Virus record (IMG/VR): IMGVR_UViG_3300044673_000327
Span: 21,289 to 85,288 of that record
From: a virus
Reading direction: 5' to 3' (one strand)
Length of the DNA stretch: 64,000 bases
The position numbers were made by a program, and so were the translations under genes. Shown piece by piece: positions 18,661 to 26,970 of the stretch. Positions within the stretch are counted from its first letter, which is position 1, and each line of letters begins with the position of its first letter. The notes under the pieces are model-generated. The model made no database searches and was not told where the DNA came from. It was given only the letters and a program-made list of their open reading frames with translations.

Positions 18661-19989
18661 CTAGAACCCGAGTAGTTCCTGTAACTCCTTACTCCCCTGT
18701 TCGTCTAACTTGAGTCGGGAGAAGTCTACCCCGTTCCCATCACTTTCGGCGAGGAGTTCATCGAGACTCTTTTTCCCGAATCGTTTATTGAATTTGTCGC
18801 GTTCTTTCTGTCGCTTTTGTTGGATACGGTAATCGTAGGAGTTCGGGGTAATAGAGCGGTGAATTCTAGCGGCTCTCGGATCATCGTATCGGGCTTGTAG
18901 TTTCAATCGCTCCACGTCTCCCTCTCTCCACGTATCTAAAACCTCGAACCATGTATCGGGAGGGTAGATCGATTCCGATTCGGCATCGTTAAACGTCGTA
19001 TTAGGATAACGGGTCGAGGTATCGTAATCGATGACGACCGGGTACTCCCCGTTCCGTTTCGAGAAAAAGTCTACCCGACCCGGATCGGTCGTCACCGAAT
19101 GAAAAGCGGGATCTTGCCAGTAAGAAGTATTCTCGTCGGTATAGCCACCAAAGAGTACATCATCGAGAAACTTCTGGCGATCGCCCTCGGTAGAGAAGTG
19201 CATCCCCCGTTGAATTCGAGAGCCATCGAGATCCGCCGATACCTCTTCGGGTAATTGACGAAGAGTTTTATCGATAGAGAGAATGTCTTTCTTTACGGTA
19301 GGCTCGATCTTCTCGTTAACTTGATTTAGCAAGTTAGCTCGTTGTACCGATCGTTTCTGTAATTCGGGATAGTAAGAATCAAGGTTGTCAATTAGATCTT
19401 TTACCTGTTCTCGATAAACGGGTAGATCCGAGTATCTAACACTCTCGGGAATATCGACTATTCCCATCTCTTTTAAACGTGGATAACTATTTAACGAATC
19501 GATAGGTACACTCGGATCGACTTTATCCCATAACTTTTCTTCTAACATTCTCGCCATCGGAATAGCGGACTCATCTCCTCCTACAGCCTCTTTATAAACG
19601 TCGGCGAGTTGTTGTTTGTCTCGGGTATTGTCAACGGGGCTAAAGTTTAACTCATCTAAAAAAGAGTTTAAAAATCTTCCGACCTTATCTTTAGAACGTT
19701 CGTCTACAACGTTATCGAATTCTTTGTATATAGATTTTAATTCGGGGATTTCGTTCTCGAAGGATTGTCTCGATACCGCTGTATCCGCCGCTTTCTCTTT
19801 TCCGAACCGGAGGTAGTCGTTATAAACCTTATATTCATAATCCCCCGCGTATTTCTGCAACTCGATACGGATCTGTTCTTCGGTTAGAGGTTTAGCGAAA
19901 CGTACCGATCGCCCCTCTTGATACACGTTCTGGGGTTTACCGAGATCGGCTTGACGGGCTTCTTTAATTAATCTGGCGAATACACTCAT
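18661..19989 (-). CDS. putative R-S-E ADP-ribosyltransferase (VIP2/Alt-like C-terminal domain)
   Basis: IQRGM, FHSVTT, AESESIYPPDTWFEV in canonical order. Confidence 0.65.
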   Translation of the reverse strand: MSVFARLIKEARQADLGKPQNVYQEGRSVRFAKPLTEEQIRIELQKYAGDYEYKVYNDYLRFGKEKAADTAVSRQSFENEIPELKSIYKEFDNVVDERSKDKVGRFLNSFLDELNFSPVDNTRDKQQLADVYKEAVGGDESAIPMARMLEEKLWDKVDPSVPIDSLNSYPRLKEMGIVDIPESVRYSDLPVYREQVKDLIDNLDSYYPELQKRSVQRANLLNQVNEKIEPTVKKDILSIDKTLRQLPEEVSADLDGSRIQRGMHFSTEGDRQKFLDDVLFGGYTDENTSYWQDPAFHSVTTDPGRVDFFSKRNGEYPVVIDYDTSTRYPNTTFNDAESESIYPPDTWFEVLDTWREGDVERLKLQARYDDPRAARIHRSITPNSYDYRIQQKRQKERDKFNKRFGKKSLDELLAESDGNGVDFSRLKLDEQGSKELQELLGF

Positions 19990-20033
19990 CGGGGTAGAGG
20001 GAGAACAAGACCCCGAGTAGTATTCCTAGATCG

Positions 20034-20879
20034 CTAGAATATCGAACGTATCGGTAGTATCTTGGCTATCCGATTCTTATTGTCGAGAGGAAGATATTCT
20101 TTGGAATAAAGATTTCTCTGTACCTCGGGCATAAAACCACCGGAAACCTTTCGTTCCCGATCGCCCATCTCGTCCCATTTCAAAACCGTACCCGATCTTT
20201 TAGCGTTTTCTATCTCTTCATCCGTGGGTTTCGACTTAAGTTGCACCGATTCGATCGTGTAGAAAGGATTTCGTTCATCTCCCCAATATTGGAATTCTAC
20301 GAATGGAGAGGTCACGCGGTTTTTCTCCATCCCCCGCCCGGTATGAAATCTATCCCAGAGATCTCGAACGTTCTCGGGATCGGCGGAAACCAAAGGAACT
20401 TTCCCCCAATCGCGGATCGAATCCCCGATCGAAAGAGTGCTTTTTTCTAGAATAGCGGGGTTCATTTTAATAACCGATGTCTCTACTAACTCGCCCCCGA
20501 TCGAACCGTTATTGCCGATAATATCGGGTCTAGCGTAGGGTTGGTTATTTTTTTCGGGGGCGATAAACCCGTAAATCGGGGAAACGTCGGGGTTCGCCCA
20601 CTCGGGTCGCCAGTAATCGTAGTACACGAATTTTCTAGTATTCATCGCCCCTTTTCGCTCTCCCGCCCCCGGTCGATAGCCCTCTTTTAAGATCGAGCTA
20701 ACGTGTTGACGGGGAGCTATGATATAGGGAACCAACGCGCCGCTCTCTCCCGATAAAAAGCGATCGAGTAGAGCGAGACGTTTATTATAATTCCCCGAAG
20801 AGATCTCGTCATAACTCCCTAAAGGATAACGAGCATCATAATCCTGTTGACGGTAAAGATCGGCGAGATTGGAAGACAT
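20034..20879 (-). CDS. DUF3626-like protein
   Basis: SILKEG, PIYGFI, STLSIGDS, FVEFQYWG..IESV pattern. Confidence 0.5.
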   Translation of the reverse strand: MSSNLADLYRQQDYDARYPLGSYDEISSGNYNKRLALLDRFLSGESGALVPYIIAPRQHVSSILKEGYRPGAGERKGAMNTRKFVYYDYWRPEWANPDVSPIYGFIAPEKNNQPYARPDIIGNNGSIGGELVETSVIKMNPAILEKSTLSIGDSIRDWGKVPLVSADPENVRDLWDRFHTGRGMEKNRVTSPFVEFQYWGDERNPFYTIESVQLKSKPTDEEIENAKRSGTVLKWDEMGDRERKVSGGFMPEVQRNLYSKEYLPLDNKNRIAKILPIRSIF

Positions 20880-21013
20880 GACGGGGCATGGAAAACAAGA
20901 CCCCGATTAGTATTCCTAACCGAAAGAAATCGGTACGATCGCCCGAAGGAAATGTACCGATAATTTACTTGAGGTTATGTCCCTAGTCTTGAAACTCGAA
21001 TCGGGTCAACGAT

Positions 21014-21061
21014 CTAGTTCTGGAACGAACGAACGATCGTGCAGAAACGTTCATCGACAAG
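21014..21061 (-). pseudogene. displaced original 3' end of the major capsid gene (LVDERFCTIVRSFQN*)
   Basis: 16 codons encoding the same peptide as the capsid C-terminus except one I/V change; abuts the HNH stop codon. Confidence 0.9.
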
Positions 21062-22009
21062 TTACCCGTCTTTATTAGTATTCCTGTGTTTGCCCGTGGC
21101 GATTAAACCGACCGTCGCTCTAGACACCCCGTAAAGTTTGGCGATCGCCCCCTGTGTCATCGCTCGGGCTTCCCATATCTTGCGAATTTCTTCTACCTGT
21201 TCGTCTGTCAACTTGCACCGAGGATTGTTCTCTCCCGCTAGTAACCCCTTTCGGACTTGTTTGTTTCGTTCGATAACTTTATCCGGGCGGGAAACTCCTT
21301 TCGCTCGAAGAATTCTTTCTACAGTTCCGATCGATAATCCCACCACATCGGCTATTTCTCTACTAAAACAGCCATCTTGCCGCATCGAGATTATTGTTTC
21401 AGCGATCGCTTCATTAGTTCTAACACCTGTATTGAAATGCTCTTTAACTTTCTTGTTCAGGATTCGCTCGAAATAGTCACGGCTATTATCCTGATGGGTT
21501 CCGATTTCGAGGTGGTCGGGATTAATGCAAAGTTTATTGTCGCATTTGTGACGTATTAGCTTTTCTTTAGGAACTGGTTCTTTAAAAACCTCGTAGCTTA
21601 ATCTATGGGCTTGCCATATCTTGCCGTGATAACCGATGCTTCCATATCCCGCGCTGGTAACTCCACCAATCCAATTCCAACAATCGGTTTCACGATCGAT
21701 TACTCGTTTCTGTTTTAGTCGAACTTGAATAGATTCTCCTCGGTGACGTGGGCGATCACCTAAAACTAAATGCTCTGGGTTAACACAATGATTATTTTTA
21801 CAGGTATGGTTGACGATCTTTCCCTCGGGAATAGATTCAAGTTCGTTATAAATGCAATACGAGAGACGATGAGCCATTACCGTTTTTCTGTTGATATGCG
21901 TCGTTCCAAACCCATCCCAATTGATAGCGGCTATCCAAAGCCAGCATCCATCGGGATCGGAACGCTTGTCGATCTTGGAATGAAACCGATCTACAATTTC
22001 CTGTTTCAT
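21062..22009 (-). CDS. free-standing double-HNH homing endonuclease with C-terminal HTH
   Basis: two CWxW..AHRLSY..HxCxNxxCxNPxHL domains; AT-rich. Confidence 0.9.
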   Translation of the reverse strand: MKQEIVDRFHSKIDKRSDPDGCWLWIAAINWDGFGTTHINRKTVMAHRLSYCIYNELESIPEGKIVNHTCKNNHCVNPEHLVLGDRPRHRGESIQVRLKQKRVIDRETDCWNWIGGVTSAGYGSIGYHGKIWQAHRLSYEVFKEPVPKEKLIRHKCDNKLCINPDHLEIGTHQDNSRDYFERILNKKVKEHFNTGVRTNEAIAETIISMRQDGCFSREIADVVGLSIGTVERILRAKGVSRPDKVIERNKQVRKGLLAGENNPRCKLTDEQVEEIRKIWEARAMTQGAIAKLYGVSRATVGLIATGKHRNTNKDG

Positions 22010-22199
22010 AGAATCATCTCATTGTCGTGTCTCTTTATTATGCCATGTATCGAGCGTAATCAGCAATCTATATGATTATGTAGCTTATAATAGAAATAAG
22101 CCTCTTGGAATTATCCAAAAGGCTTACTGTGTCTAAAATCTAGTTGTTGTTCTAGTTTTGGAAAGAGCGTACAATTGTACAAAAACGTTCGTCAATTAG
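21062..22199 (-). mobile_element. HNH insertion element carrying a recoded capsid 3' end
   Basis: bounded by duplicated capsid C-terminal codons at 22152-22199 and 21014-21061. Confidence 0.8.
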
Positions 22200-23351
22200 C
22201 TCGAACGACCCGAAGATCTGCCAAATGCAGATAATGAACCGTTGGAAGTCATCGTTGGAGTTCATGAGGATACGCGGGCCATCTCCACCGATACCGACCC
22301 CGATACACTGCGGGCCGAAAACGATCCCGAGTTCGGCGGTACGAGCGGCGGAACCACCGGTCACACCCGCGGGTTGGTTGGAGTAGTTCACCGTGACGGT
22401 AGCTTTAGGCATATTGGTCGTGGTGAAGTAGCGGATACCGTTGAACACGAAACCGGAGGGCATCGTTTGAGCGCCGAGCATATCGATCATCTGACCACCG
22501 GCGAGACCCGCGAACCAAGTCGAGCTAGACTGACCGACGGGCATACCACCACCACCGATCTGCGGGATAGACATCGGTTCGGCTCCGACTCCCATACTGG
22601 AGACGGGGATATTACCGGGGTAGCGGGTGATCTCGCGGAAGTCTTTATCGGCGCGGAGATCTTGCAGGAAACGGGGGGAGCAGAGACACCAGTAGTTACC
22701 GTCCTCGAAACGGGGTACTAACCGTTCGGACATACGGGTGTTCACCTCTTCCATGAAGTTGACGGTGATCTTGGGAACCTTCGATCCGTAGACGGTGCTA
22801 GAACCGATGTCCACGGTCGCGCCATCGGCGAAACCACCGGGGTTGTAGACGAAGGTGGATTTCAACATCTCGTTGATGTAAACCCGATCTTCCCAACGAC
22901 GGTAATCGTCGAGGAGATTAGCCGAACCGATCGAATCGTGGAAAGCCTGAGCGCCGTAATCCCAATATTTCCGTTGCGCCGTCATCAATTGTTGGATAGG
23001 GATCTGGAACGTCGCGGGGGTGTTCGGGCTATCGATCGCCGACGGTCCGGTGTACTCCCGGAGGGTCATGATCACCTTGTCTTTGTCGAACCCGCGGGCG
23101 TTACCCACACCGATCGTTTGGGTCTGACTACGTTCGCGAGCCGTTTTGGTTAGACTCTGCTCGCGGTTGGCGGAACTGAGTTCTTTATCCGCCCAGAACG
23201 CGGGACGATCGAGTTGCACCGAATCACCCGGGCCTTTGGTGTGGTCGTACATGACGCGGGGACGGGTGATCAGTTTAGAGATATAGGTCGGGACGGGGCG
23301 GAATAATTCAGCGCCGAGAATTAACGGAACATCATTATCGATAAAGCTCAC
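22152..23351 (-). CDS. major capsid protein (N4-gp56-like)
   Basis: 399 aa; GDSVQLDR, CLCSPRFLQDL, FNGIRYFTTTN, IVFG; downstream of portal/scaffold; AGGAG SD with GTG start. Confidence 0.85.
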   Translation of the reverse strand: MSFIDNDVPLILGAELFRPVPTYISKLITRPRVMYDHTKGPGDSVQLDRPAFWADKELSSANREQSLTKTARERSQTQTIGVGNARGFDKDKVIMTLREYTGPSAIDSPNTPATFQIPIQQLMTAQRKYWDYGAQAFHDSIGSANLLDDYRRWEDRVYINEMLKSTFVYNPGGFADGATVDIGSSTVYGSKVPKITVNFMEEVNTRMSERLVPRFEDGNYWCLCSPRFLQDLRADKDFREITRYPGNIPVSSMGVGAEPMSIPQIGGGGMPVGQSSSTWFAGLAGGQMIDMLGAQTMPSGFVFNGIRYFTTTNMPKATVTVNYSNQPAGVTGGSAARTAELGIVFGPQCIGVGIGGDGPRILMNSNDDFQRFIICIWQIFGSFELIDERFCTIVRSFQN

Positions 23352-23852
23352 GGTTTTGACTCCTAGCTAGGAAGAATAGGTTGGAGTCAAGTGGTAGTTA
23401 CCAATCCCTCACCGTTGTTTTTTCCGAAAAGCGGTGGGGGATTTCCCTTTGAAAGACTTTGTAGAGAGGAGAGGAAGGAATGAAAGAGTAGATAAAGCGT
23501 TTTGGTAGAGAGTTGTTATCGGTAGTGGTTGTCGATCGCTCTATCGATTGAAAAGAGAAATTGAAAATTCATTCATTCCTTCCTTCCTCTTATCGAACGG
23601 AGTAGAGTATTCCTAGATACGATCGCTATCGAGAGATCTATCAAAAAGAAATCGATACGGATTCCCGAATAGAACCGTATCGATGAACCATCTATATGAA
23701 CAAACCGTTTGGAAGAACCCGAGTGCTGTCGTGTTCGGAAATTAGTATTCCTCGATCGCCCGAGAAGGCAAAGAAAAGAACACGGGGTTTAATCCGTGTT
23801 CCACGCTCGCACGACCACTTGGCAAAACCGATTGTCTATTCCCGTCCGATCG

Positions 23853-25334
23853 CTATCGGATCATCGCCCCTTTAGCGGTTCCGATCTTGCCCGCGCTCTC
23901 TAGGGCGGTGAGGGCGAGGTATCGTTTCGAGGGATCGATCGCCGATATGCCACCTCGGGGAACCGCGTTCGTCCCGTAGGGAGCGGCTTGACCCGAGGGT
24001 AATTCGGGACGGGTGACGTTGATAGAGTTCGTCGGGAGTTCGTTGCCGATACCCTCGGGGAAAACGGTACGGGGATCGATACCCTTGCGGGCGAGATGTT
24101 TGGCGTAGCTCGCCTTATCCGCGGGCGATAGGGCTTTCGGATCGATGCCGACGATCGAATTATTCGGGTTCGGGGGAGTGGCGGGAGGTAACGCCGCTCT
24201 CTCGGGTTGACCGCCCATCGGGATCGCTTGTTGCTGTCCCCGAACGGGTTGTTGCCCCCTCCGTTGCATCTCGATACCGTACTGCCGCTCGATGAGGGCT
24301 TTCTGTACCTCGGGTTGTTGTAATCGGGGGTCGTTAGGATCGATACCGTTCTCGGAGATCGCCGCGCCTAAAAGAGCGCCCATGAGTTGTTGTTGCTTCT
24401 CCACCTGAACGAGGTTAGCGAAATACTCGTTGAGTTGTTTCGGATCGGTGAGAAGATCTTGCATCTTATCGTGACGTTTCTCTAGTTGTTCGTACCGCTC
24501 GACGTGGAGAACGAGATCCTTGAGGAATTCCTGATGCGAGATAAAGTATTTCACGTACTCGACGATCGCCGCCGCCTGACGTTGATTGAGATCTTCGAGC
24601 TTGGCGTGGGACTCGTTGAGAAGTTCGGCGATCTGGGCGATCGGGAGGTTGAACGCTTTCTCCAGTTCGATCGCCGAAGCGAAACCCTCCGAGGAGATTT
24701 TACTTACGGGTTGACTTTGACTTTGACTTTGATTTAGGTTTTGAGCCTGTTCTTGAATTCCGTTGCTGTTTAAACTGGGTGTAGGTTGGGAAAAGCTGGG
24801 TTGCTGTTGTCGCGGATAGGTCGGGTGGTACTGGTGCGAGGGAGTCACGTAATCCGGGGCTAAACCGTTGGAGTTCGGGTAAGCTACCGGAACCGTCCCC
24901 GGTTGTCGATTGACCAACATCTGAGCCTGGTACGGGTAATCCGGCGAGGTATTCTGGGCGGATCGAATTCCCTCCTGCATAAACCCCTGCACCTCCCGAT
25001 AGCCCATCGGACGGAGATCCCGCGCCTGTCCCCAAGGTTCCGAGTATTGTGGCGTTGGGATATATTCCTGTTGCCTGTAATGGGGTGTAATTGTAGGCGG
25101 GGTTGATACCGGGGTTTGTAGATACCCCGTATTTTGTACCGGTGAGGTATTCGAGTATTGCGGGATCTGATAGGTTTGTTGCGGCTGGTACGGAACCATT
25201 TGCGCCGTTTGCACCGGTTGTAGGTTCAGCGTCTGGACTTGCTGAGGATAGTCCGGCGATATAGTCATCGTAGGCGCTGGAGCCGGTTGGGAAGGGGTTA
25301 TCGGTTGGAGTTGCGGGTTCGATAGGTCTGACAT
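23853..25334 (-). CDS. putative capsid scaffolding protein
   Basis: Q/P-rich N-terminus, central coiled coil, between portal and capsid. Confidence 0.65.
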   Translation of the reverse strand: MSDLSNPQLQPITPSQPAPAPTMTISPDYPQQVQTLNLQPVQTAQMVPYQPQQTYQIPQYSNTSPVQNTGYLQTPVSTPPTITPHYRQQEYIPTPQYSEPWGQARDLRPMGYREVQGFMQEGIRSAQNTSPDYPYQAQMLVNRQPGTVPVAYPNSNGLAPDYVTPSHQYHPTYPRQQQPSFSQPTPSLNSNGIQEQAQNLNQSQSQSQPVSKISSEGFASAIELEKAFNLPIAQIAELLNESHAKLEDLNQRQAAAIVEYVKYFISHQEFLKDLVLHVERYEQLEKRHDKMQDLLTDPKQLNEYFANLVQVEKQQQLMGALLGAAISENGIDPNDPRLQQPEVQKALIERQYGIEMQRRGQQPVRGQQQAIPMGGQPERAALPPATPPNPNNSIVGIDPKALSPADKASYAKHLARKGIDPRTVFPEGIGNELPTNSINVTRPELPSGQAAPYGTNAVPRGGISAIDPSKRYLALTALESAGKIGTAKGAMIR

Positions 25335-26970
25335 AGCCGAGTTCGTTAAATATAGTTTCTAGGGAACGCTGGATCATCGGAACCACCGGCAGACTCGCCG
25401 ATAGCGGTAAACCGGGGTTAGCCTGATCGGGAAGTTGGAGAAGGTTTTGGTAGATCCCGAGCAATTGTTGTGTCGTACCCGCGACCGCGTTGAGATAGCG
25501 GAACGGATACCCACCACTTAACATTCCTATCTTTTCCTTCTCCGTCTTCTCGGGGAAAAGGAAAGTCAGGGCATCGAGCGATCGCACACCCAACTCCTGA
25601 AGGTTACGGGTAACGATAGATTTCTTCTGGAGATCGTCGGGACTATCCTCGAATACAGAACCTTTCCATCGCCACTCGATCGTTCTCTTACCGAGGGGGG
25701 GCAAGCCGAAAACACCCTCGGGTAGGGGAGTACCCGCTTGCATCATGGCGTTAAACTCCTCGACCGATACGGGTTCGGTATTCGGATCTCTACCGAGGGC
25801 GATCGTCAGACTTCTCAGGAATAGATCTTCCTCGATCGCTAGAATCTTCTCTAAAACCTTACAGATACCGTGGGTGTAGATAGCGACGGCTTTTTTCTTC
25901 GCGGTCGTGGCGACCTTACCGTACACCGTCTTCATCTCGTAAGCGGTAGCGGACGCGTGAATCCCCCGCTCGTCGATACCCCCGAGGGCGAAGTGGATAG
26001 CCTCCCGCTCCTGTTGGACGTGATTGAACTGATCGGGACTCACGGGATCGGGGGTGATAAAAGCGAATCGCTCATCCGCCCCGACGTTACCGATCACCTG
26101 CTTGAGTCGGAATCCCTTCGAGGTCATTCCCCCGCGTCTGGGATCGCCCTTACGGGTGGAGAACGAGTTATTGCCGTACCATCCCGAGTTAGCGGCGACG
26201 GTATTGGCGCGGTTGAGATTGCGGGAACCCCATCCCCCCGCTTCCTGTAGTTCGGAGGGAGATCGGGTACTGACTAAAATGGGATGACCGAAGAAGGCGA
26301 GGTTCTCCTGAATCGCCACGACATCGGCGTTGTGCGCCTCGATCTGGGAGCGGAACGGCTCGAAGTCCCCCGTACCCGGTTGACCCTTCCCTTTCGAGTT
26401 ATTCTTGATCACCACCACGGGGATAAACCCGAGGGAGTTCTTGAAGGTCTGTCTATTGGGTGTCTGGATCTCGGAATCGAACGAGGGTCGGGATTCGTAC
26501 TCCTCCTGATAGACGAGATCTTTGGTGAGGATTAATTTAATCCACGATTCTTTCTTCCAGTTATCGGTTTTGCCTACCTTGTTAAAAGGGTAGATCACGA
26601 TCGCCCGCTCTATTTCCCCATCGCGATCGTAGTAAACGCGATACTGTCCCCTCTCGTAGAAATAGATGTCGTAGGTGGCTTTCTTATTAGGACGAAAGTA
26701 GACGAGTTGTTCGCCCTTACAGATATGGATCTGCCAGATCCGTTCCATCTGTAAATCGAGTTGATTGTGCTTTACGATGTCCTCGATAAAACCCTTACGA
26801 GTCCCCCGATCGTCATCTTGAGTGGGGTAATATTCTACCCCGGCTCTCAATCCGAACATGGTCATTTGAGAGACGTGGTTCTGCACCACCATCGTCCGCG
26901 CCTCTTCCTCGTTCGGGAAAGACTCGGGGTAGAGGTAACTATTAACGAGATCGTCTAGGGTCGCTGACAT
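24700..26970 (-). CDS. portal protein
   Basis: NSLGFIPVVVIKN...GTGDFEP portal motif; position upstream of scaffold and capsid. Confidence 0.8.
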   Translation of the reverse strand: MSATLDDLVNSYLYPESFPNEEEARTMVVQNHVSQMTMFGLRAGVEYYPTQDDDRGTRKGFIEDIVKHNQLDLQMERIWQIHICKGEQLVYFRPNKKATYDIYFYERGQYRVYYDRDGEIERAIVIYPFNKVGKTDNWKKESWIKLILTKDLVYQEEYESRPSFDSEIQTPNRQTFKNSLGFIPVVVIKNNSKGKGQPGTGDFEPFRSQIEAHNADVVAIQENLAFFGHPILVSTRSPSELQEAGGWGSRNLNRANTVAANSGWYGNNSFSTRKGDPRRGGMTSKGFRLKQVIGNVGADERFAFITPDPVSPDQFNHVQQEREAIHFALGGIDERGIHASATAYEMKTVYGKVATTAKKKAVAIYTHGICKVLEKILAIEEDLFLRSLTIALGRDPNTEPVSVEEFNAMMQAGTPLPEGVFGLPPLGKRTIEWRWKGSVFEDSPDDLQKKSIVTRNLQELGVRSLDALTFLFPEKTEKEKIGMLSGGYPFRYLNAVAGTTQQLLGIYQNLLQLPDQANPGLPLSASLPVVPMIQRSLETIFNELGYVRPIEPATPTDNPFPTGSSAYDDYIAGLSSASPDAEPTTGANGANGSVPAATNLSDPAILEYLTGTKYGVSTNPGINPAYNYTPLQATGIYPNATILGTLGTGAGSPSDGLSGGAGVYAGGNSIRPEYLAGLPVPGSDVGQSTTGDGSGSLPELQRFSPGLRDSLAPVPPDLSATTATQLFPTYTQFKQQRNSRTGSKPKSKSKSKSTRK

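Follow-up and report, generated by a model that had tools for sequence, protein, structure and literature searches.

How can a homing endonuclease gene come to lie inside the coding region of an essential phage gene, as part of neither an intron nor an intein, and leave the interrupted protein complete? The question is raised by the 3' end of a major capsid gene in the stretch of DNA analysed here (the window, 64 kb, bases 21289-85288 of an 85,288-bp IMG/VR virus record), where the capsid reading frame runs to its stop codon, an HNH endonuclease gene follows, and directly behind the HNH stop codon stands a second, differently spelled capsid 3' end, here called the orphan. A preliminary description of this DNA had proposed that the element invaded the capsid gene and restored the protein with a synonymously recoded C-terminus. 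We consider it probable that a homing-endonuclease cassette (21062-22199, minus strand) brought in the capsid tail of a diverged relative and displaced the native one, and the evidence for this reading and for its rivals is set out below.

Anatomy of the capsid locus

All genes discussed here lie on the minus strand in the head module (Table 1). The capsid ORF, for which 512 homologues were found, matched a PHROG family, and its AlphaFold model, computed with 30 homologues (pLDDT 72.5, pTM 0.73), has the HK97 fold, with the cyanopodophage Pan3, P-SCSP1u, A4 and N4 capsids as the top fold matches. The capsid profile had no match among PDB sequences, and the fold comparison was used instead. Both the family match and the model bear out the earlier identification of the interrupted gene as a capsid gene. 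The last 15 residues of the protein are part of a motif conserved across the capsid family, and the final beta-strand of the model (residues 391-398) lies inside them. In the position of a scaffold gene, a Q/P-rich ORF of 493 aa (23853-25334) precedes the capsid gene; with its first ATG as the start it would share 635 nt with the portal-like ORF, in a different frame, and its true start is probably further downstream. An Rfam scan of the whole window gave no family at gathering score, tRNAs included. Relatives of the capsid gene sit on Nodosilinea, Nostoc, Desmonostoc, Chroococcidiopsis and Leptolyngbya assembly contigs, and the window holds 26 copies of GCGATCGC (HIP1), a motif typical of cyanobacteria, and 219 of CGATCG. 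Therefore, the host is likely a cyanobacterium.

Table 1. Features of the capsid locus, in window coordinates.
Feature	Position	Strand	Properties
Portal-like gene	24700-26970	minus	phrog_20475, E = 5e-144
Terminator-like hairpin in front of the capsid gene	23640-23700		-17.9 kcal/mol
Major capsid ORF	22152-23351	minus	399 aa; PHROG 1357 (phrog_1357) 'major head protein', E = 4e-11
Native capsid body, codons 1-384	22200..23351	minus	GC3 0.685
In-frame capsid tail, codons 385-399 and TAG	22152..22199	minus	AT-rich; ends LIDERFCTIVRSFQN and stop
Cassette spacer, 142 nt	22010..22151	minus	33% GC; carries terminator-like hairpin
Terminator-like hairpin of the cassette spacer	22095-22128		-23 kcal/mol, z = -7.9
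HNH_3 endonuclease gene, 315 aa	21062..22009	minus	ends TAA
Parts of the HNH protein			residues 1-88 degenerate His-Me finger; 91-184 catalytic HNH; ~196-310 two HTH modules
Orphan tail copy, 15 codons and TAG	21014..21061	minus	LVDERFCTIVRSFQN and stop
Terminator-like hairpin and U-tract behind the orphan	20918..20975	minus	-15.8 kcal/mol

The orphan starts at the base right after the HNH TAA and is in frame with the HNH gene. Its similarity to the in-frame capsid tail runs from the CT of the Leu codon to one base past the TAG, with none further upstream. Between the copies, 12 of the 48 nt are different, spread over 11 codons and altering a single amino acid (I/V); eleven of the 12 differences are at third codon positions and one, the conservative I/V change, is at a first position, a distribution with a probability of ~5e-5 if the differences fell at random. 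When the last 30 capsid residues were used as the tblastn query, the orphan was found at E = 1.3e-5. Because of this match and the third-position bias of the differences, the second tail is not a chance resemblance and the duplication is real. The GC3 is 0.42 in the HNH gene, and 9/15 codons of the orphan end in G or C versus 4/15 of the in-frame tail. The span from the in-frame tail to the end of the HNH gene measures 22199-21062+1 = 1138 bp, which is the insert size given in the preliminary description. The layout described there proved exact to the base on the minus strand, its counts of differing nucleotides, codons and residues were reproduced, and the GC3 values agree with its remark that the orphan has the C/G-ending codon style of the capsid gene and the in-frame copy is AT-rich.

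The HNH endonuclease

The ORF behind the capsid gene matched Pfam HNH_3 (E = 2.3e-16, above cut-off), zf-His_Me_endon (5.3e-11) and HTH_7 (above cut-off), with further HTH matches besides, and it matched endonuclease families in PHROG with E down to 4e-48. It contains two HNH-like repeats, with the full His/Asn/Asn set in the second only, and H154, N163 and N175 are invariant in the alignment with homologues. In the protein model (pLDDT 88), residues 1-88 superposed on SMAD MH1 domains, which are DNA-binding His-Me fingers, with a Z of 6.6, a moderate value that counts only jointly with the Pfam matches. Residues 91-184 superposed on I-HmuI, a nicking homing endonuclease (structure 1u3e), over 82 residues (Z 7.7, rmsd 2.5 A), again a moderate score to be read together with Pfam. 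The family matches, the invariant catalytic residues and the fold match agree in identifying the insert as an I-HmuI-like endonuclease of the HNH_3 type, as had been claimed in outline. Moreover, the protein has an extended modular DNA-binding part, its gene is an ORF of its own behind a stop codon and the spacer, and its occurrence among relatives is sporadic; we regard it as a putative free-standing HNH_3 homing endonuclease.

The first repeat of the protein is without the GT..DN part of the motif. The same tandem of a degenerate and an active repeat was observed in the nuclease of the related locus L178, and four repeats were observed in P0122; in the HNH_3 nuclease family, degenerate His-Me fingers may be DNA-binding modules. 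Matches of the HNH protein to PDB sequences were only spurious armadillo repeats. The gene is single-copy in the 85-kb record and about as rich in CGATCG as the rest of the window, that is, not compositionally alien throughout. The closest homologue in the database aligns with 58% of the query at 41% identity, and no donor of the cassette was found among the database homologues. A promoter scan gave sites no more frequent than in shuffled sequence, and none was recognised for the HNH gene. In addition, a contig of 163 nt in X3, a rhizosphere metagenome run, matches positions 21755-21917 in the HNH gene without a difference; otherwise this run has only scraps of <90% identity, and the gene may sit in another genome context there.

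Capsid 3' ends of the relatives

About 183 related capsid loci were gathered from viral, metagenome and genome collections. A tblastn search with the last 30 capsid residues found no second tail copy in the first ~160, and the loci added afterwards gave one C-terminal match each, so that none of the ~183 has a second tail. The HNH-family profile had strong matches in three of them (L002, L083 and L178), in which an HNH gene on the opposite strand follows immediately after the capsid gene, and no gene of this family was found behind the capsid gene in the other ~180 relatives. L002 and L083 represent one lineage (capsid 52% identical), and L178 is a Chroococcidiopsis assembly contig whose HNH protein has the same double-HNH and HTH build as the one in the window. 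The capsid genes of these loci are interrupted by group I introns, in L178 between the codons equivalent to 370 and 371 (88 bits) and in L002/L083 within the codon equivalent to 379, behind its first base (53 bits). The rest of the capsid C-terminus is encoded by the exon downstream, and for the reading frames to join, each intron must be preceded by a U and end in a G. The junction 384|385 of the window lies 17 nt downstream of the L002/L083 intron site and 42 nt downstream of the L178 site. Thus all three lineages with a neighbouring HNH_3 gene, few as they are, have a capsid 3' end that is interrupted or respelled, and none of the ~180 loci that lack such a gene does.

Several further interruptions were observed in this family. 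On the Leptolyngbya assembly contig L184 (1930-6104), the capsid gene is in four pieces with three group I introns (53-69 bits), and a fourth gap, 1.27 kb long, is occupied by an opposite-strand ORF of 307 aa that has an HTH and a LAGLIDADG-like motif; the capsid genes of the family to which such relatives belong are heavily colonised by selfish elements. A second group I intron match lies ~3 kb downstream of the capsid gene in L178 (8160-8383), another is near the capsid N-terminus in L182 (4094-4319), and a weak partial one was found in L181 (3079-3224), in a 1-kb gap at capsid residue ~100. The capsid homologues P0038, P0040 and P0041 (~295 aa) diverge after '...TMPKN' and end soon after, which points to the conserved MPTGF motif as a further site of interruption.

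At the protein level, the nearest capsid relative is 65% identical, P0002-P0004 are 57-65% identical, and the nearest relatives together span 52-65%. No close relative was found among viral contigs by peptide patterns, an exact 28-nt stretch of the orphan had no match there, and the genes that follow the orphan (281 and 442 aa) had no homologues in the related loci. The contigs of four runs are short fragments with little cover, none across the cassette and none with an empty-site joint; for the two runs that contain all sampled words of the stretch, X1 gave no contig and X2 only scraps of 20-36 nt. So scant a yield speaks neither for nor against an empty site. No RNA run was listed among the sequencing runs that contain the stretch.

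Origin of the two tails and likeness to known homing systems

When synonymous codons were sampled from the usage of the capsid body in 10,000 trials, a codon likelihood equal to or worse than that of the in-frame tail occurred in one trial (P ~1e-4) and one equal to or worse than that of the orphan in 27% of trials (P = 0.27), an argument that covers 15 codons only. Among the 385 capsid windows of 15 codons, the in-frame tail has the lowest GC3. Eight G/C-ending codons stand directly before the junction, and the codon style switches sharply at E384|L385, exactly where the duplication starts; the AT-rich style of the in-frame tail persists through the spacer and over the first half of the HNH gene. 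The hairpins behind the orphan and in front of the capsid gene share the pattern AUCGRUAC...GUAYCGAUUUCUUU, and the hairpin of the spacer is AT-rich, stronger and of another type than these local terminators. Because codon usage, third positions, terminators and composition agree, the in-frame tail appears to be foreign (donor-derived) and the orphan appears to be the displaced native capsid 3' end, an assignment in which the codon test comes out as it had been anticipated; the arguments are indirect and concern a short piece of sequence. Since 11 of the 12 differences are at third positions, both copies seem to have diverged while coding, in two phage lineages. The in-frame tail had been called synonymously recoded; the differences are indeed mostly synonymous, and the tail is better read as an import from a diverged relative.

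The same sequence could also have arisen with the opposite polarity, in that the AT-rich tail is native and the mobile unit consists of the spacer, the HNH gene and the orphan, placed behind the capsid stop. Insertion of an equally long cassette at 22151/22152 would produce an identical sequence, and in their DNA the relatives have diverged too far to tell the two polarities apart: in a comparison with the tails of 180 relatives, 77 were nearer to the in-frame copy and 67 to the orphan, and the preference followed GC content only. However, it is the in-frame tail that is the codon outlier while the orphan fits the capsid gene, the codon switch falls at the start of the duplication, and the hairpin of the local type stands behind the orphan and not behind the in-frame stop; we regard this polarity as unlikely, and its corollary, that the orphan is a leftover from the capsid gene of the donor, as unlikely to the same degree. 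An in-place duplication of the capsid 3' end around an intergenic HNH gene, with later synonymous change in the expressed copy (for example to escape cleavage), would account for change at third positions only, which is what selection on an expressed copy allows. It would, however, need extreme local mutation or selection, with 11 synonymous changes in 15 codons and none of this style in the adjoining codons, and the uniform shift to A/T matches the composition of the spacer and of the first half of the HNH gene, as fits import with the cassette. Drift of a non-coding orphan after such a duplication should have changed all codon positions, and we hold this history to be very unlikely.

A self-splicing intron (or an intein) carrying the HNH ORF would make the orphan a second exon and the in-frame tail a back-up. 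The relatives have group I introns in the same part of the capsid gene, and splicing of E384 to the orphan would yield a protein differing at residue 386 only (I to V). RF00028, however, gave no match at E <= 1 in a permissive scan of 19500-24500 and none at gathering score in the whole window, whereas it reached 53-88 bits on the introns of L002, L178, L182 and L184, and therefore the method works for this capsid family. The non-coding part amounts to the 142 nt of the spacer only, and among the three boundary registers permitted by the shared CT none combines a U ahead of the 5' junction with a final G. An intein is excluded because the TAG that ends the capsid ORF (22152) and the spacer before the HNH start part the two genes and preclude a fusion. 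The earlier statement that the element entered without intron or intein thus stands, and splicing of either kind is highly improbable. Hardly more credible is the idea that the HNH protein is a packaging accessory nuclease of the HK97 gp74 type with an incidental duplication, or that the locus is an assembly artefact. HNH genes near structural and packaging genes can serve the terminase, and the sequence is metagenomic; but the protein is of the HNH_3/I-HmuI type with 315 aa and HTH modules and not of the small gp74 type, and it is absent from ~180 relatives, hence without a core function. As for an artefact, the two tail copies have no long exact repeat to mislead an assembler, every word sampled from the stretch was present in two runs (one or the other of which may be the source of the window itself), and a third run contains an identical HNH fragment.

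Under the cassette reading that we prefer, the mobile unit would consist of the foreign last 15 capsid codons with their stop, the terminator hairpin and the HNH_3 gene. The foreign tail would be read in frame to give a complete capsid protein with one conservative I/V difference, and the native tail would have been pushed downstream and no longer be translated. In a mixed infection, the HNH protein would nick or cut an HNH-less capsid allele in its conserved 3' part, near E384|L385, at the FE|LVD junction. Resection would spare the 3' ends, and the left 3' end would invade the donor capsid gene and copy from the exact break, so that the donor tail, the spacer and the HNH gene would enter the recipient. 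On the right side, the copy would be rejoined at the recipient's own tail, by end-joining in the founding event and in later events by homology with the donor's orphan and the sequence beyond, the orphan being the start of the right-hand homology arm. With copying from the break and the recipient's right end kept, the donor sequence would start and that of the recipient resume at the same codon. The resident in-frame copy would be protected by its 12 mismatches in 48 bp, which lie in the right half of the site; the orphan, without the left half of the site, would also be protected, and being renewed from each new recipient it would not be expected to decay. What the analysis shows is the anatomy, the identity of the nuclease, the codon signatures of the two tails, the lack of an intron and the sporadic distribution; the cleavage, its position, the immunity and the direction of transfer are inferred.

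Previous studies have described the same layout outside phages. The mORFs of fungal mitochondria form 'gene hybrids' in atp6 of Allomyces macrogynus and in atp6, atp9, cox2 and nad3 of Glomus (PMC3630166); Beaudet et al. state that biochemical work has shown the hybrid endonuclease to drive mobility of the element, and they describe the Allomyces atp6 insert as a recent acquisition by horizontal transfer (PMC3630166). As here, an endonuclease ORF lies behind an essential gene, a foreign C-terminus is in frame, the native C-terminus is left downstream, and the copies differ mostly synonymously (PMC3630166). The mORFs differ in residing in an organelle and encoding LAGLIDADG or GIY-YIG enzymes, whereas here the setting is a tailed phage, the enzyme is of the HNH_3 type and a separate unfused ORF, only 15 codons are replaced, and the cassette has its own terminator. 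At FBA1, the aldolase gene of yeast, WHO elements (Coughlan et al. 2020, PMC7282813) likewise exchange the end of an essential gene for that of a diverged resistant allele and leave the old 3' end downstream; the functional unit is the nuclease gene with the resistance-conferring 3' end upstream of it, and the old FBA1 fragment was proposed as a homology arm for the next homing (PMC7282813). They differ in their intein-like LAGLIDADG or zinc-finger nucleases, the meiosis of diploid yeast, ~400 bp of replaced sequence and their occurrence in clusters (PMC7282813), against one HNH cassette, 48 bp replaced and a setting of phage co-infection here. Cleavage has been demonstrated for WHO6 (PMC7282813) and is a prediction for the HNH protein of the cassette. 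The window has the order typical of such 3'-end-replacing cassettes, namely a diverged in-frame tail, the nuclease gene and the displaced old end.

Among phages, the intronless homing of T4 type (SegF, SegG, MobE) shares with our case a free-standing nuclease between phage genes, its sporadic occurrence, and the expected spread by cutting the nuclease-less allele with co-conversion of the flanks (PMC2988022), and the T4 segD adjoins the major capsid gene 23 (PMC2988022). In the T4 cases, however, flanking markers are replaced and the review reports no displaced second gene end (PMC2988022), while here the insertion point is inside coding sequence. Collaborative homing, in which a free-standing endonuclease stands beside an endonuclease-less group I intron, is described for the cyanophage psbA gene and F-CphI (cited in PMC2988022 and PMC6279837). 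L002/L083 and L178 show this layout, with a group I intron and an HNH_3 gene behind the capsid gene, whereas the window has no intron and the presumed target is interrupted by a differently spelled replacement tail. A full-text literature search, too limited in coverage to prove absence, found no phage in which a homing endonuclease had duplicated a gene end; it found the layout described for fungal mitochondria and yeast, and the present case is set apart by the phage setting, the HNH_3 enzyme and the very short replaced end.

On the wider picture we are almost evenly divided, with a slight lean towards doubt: the conserved capsid 3' end may be a recurrent battleground of HNH endonucleases in tailed phages, and a single capsid family may have exchangeable ways to coexist with them, in that two lineages acquired group I introns at two sites (collaborative homing) and this phage a WHO-like cassette, its imported tail serving as immunity and its orphan as a homology arm renewed in each homing. 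If this is true, renewal of the homology arm would explain why the orphan has not decayed. Under the cassette reading, the locus shows that a homing endonuclease can colonise the coding region of an essential phage gene by means of a spare, differently spelled gene end, and it is of added interest that relatives meet the same problem with introns. If this reading is confirmed, tailed phages would join fungal mitochondria and yeast chromosomes as places where the mechanism operates, the junction would be a directly testable prediction of the cut site of the HNH endonuclease, and mosaic, oddly coded capsid 3' ends would be expected to mislead phylogenies and gene callers. With intron-bearing relatives at neighbouring sites, this capsid family is a natural system for comparing protection by an intron with protection by recoding against the same nuclease family.
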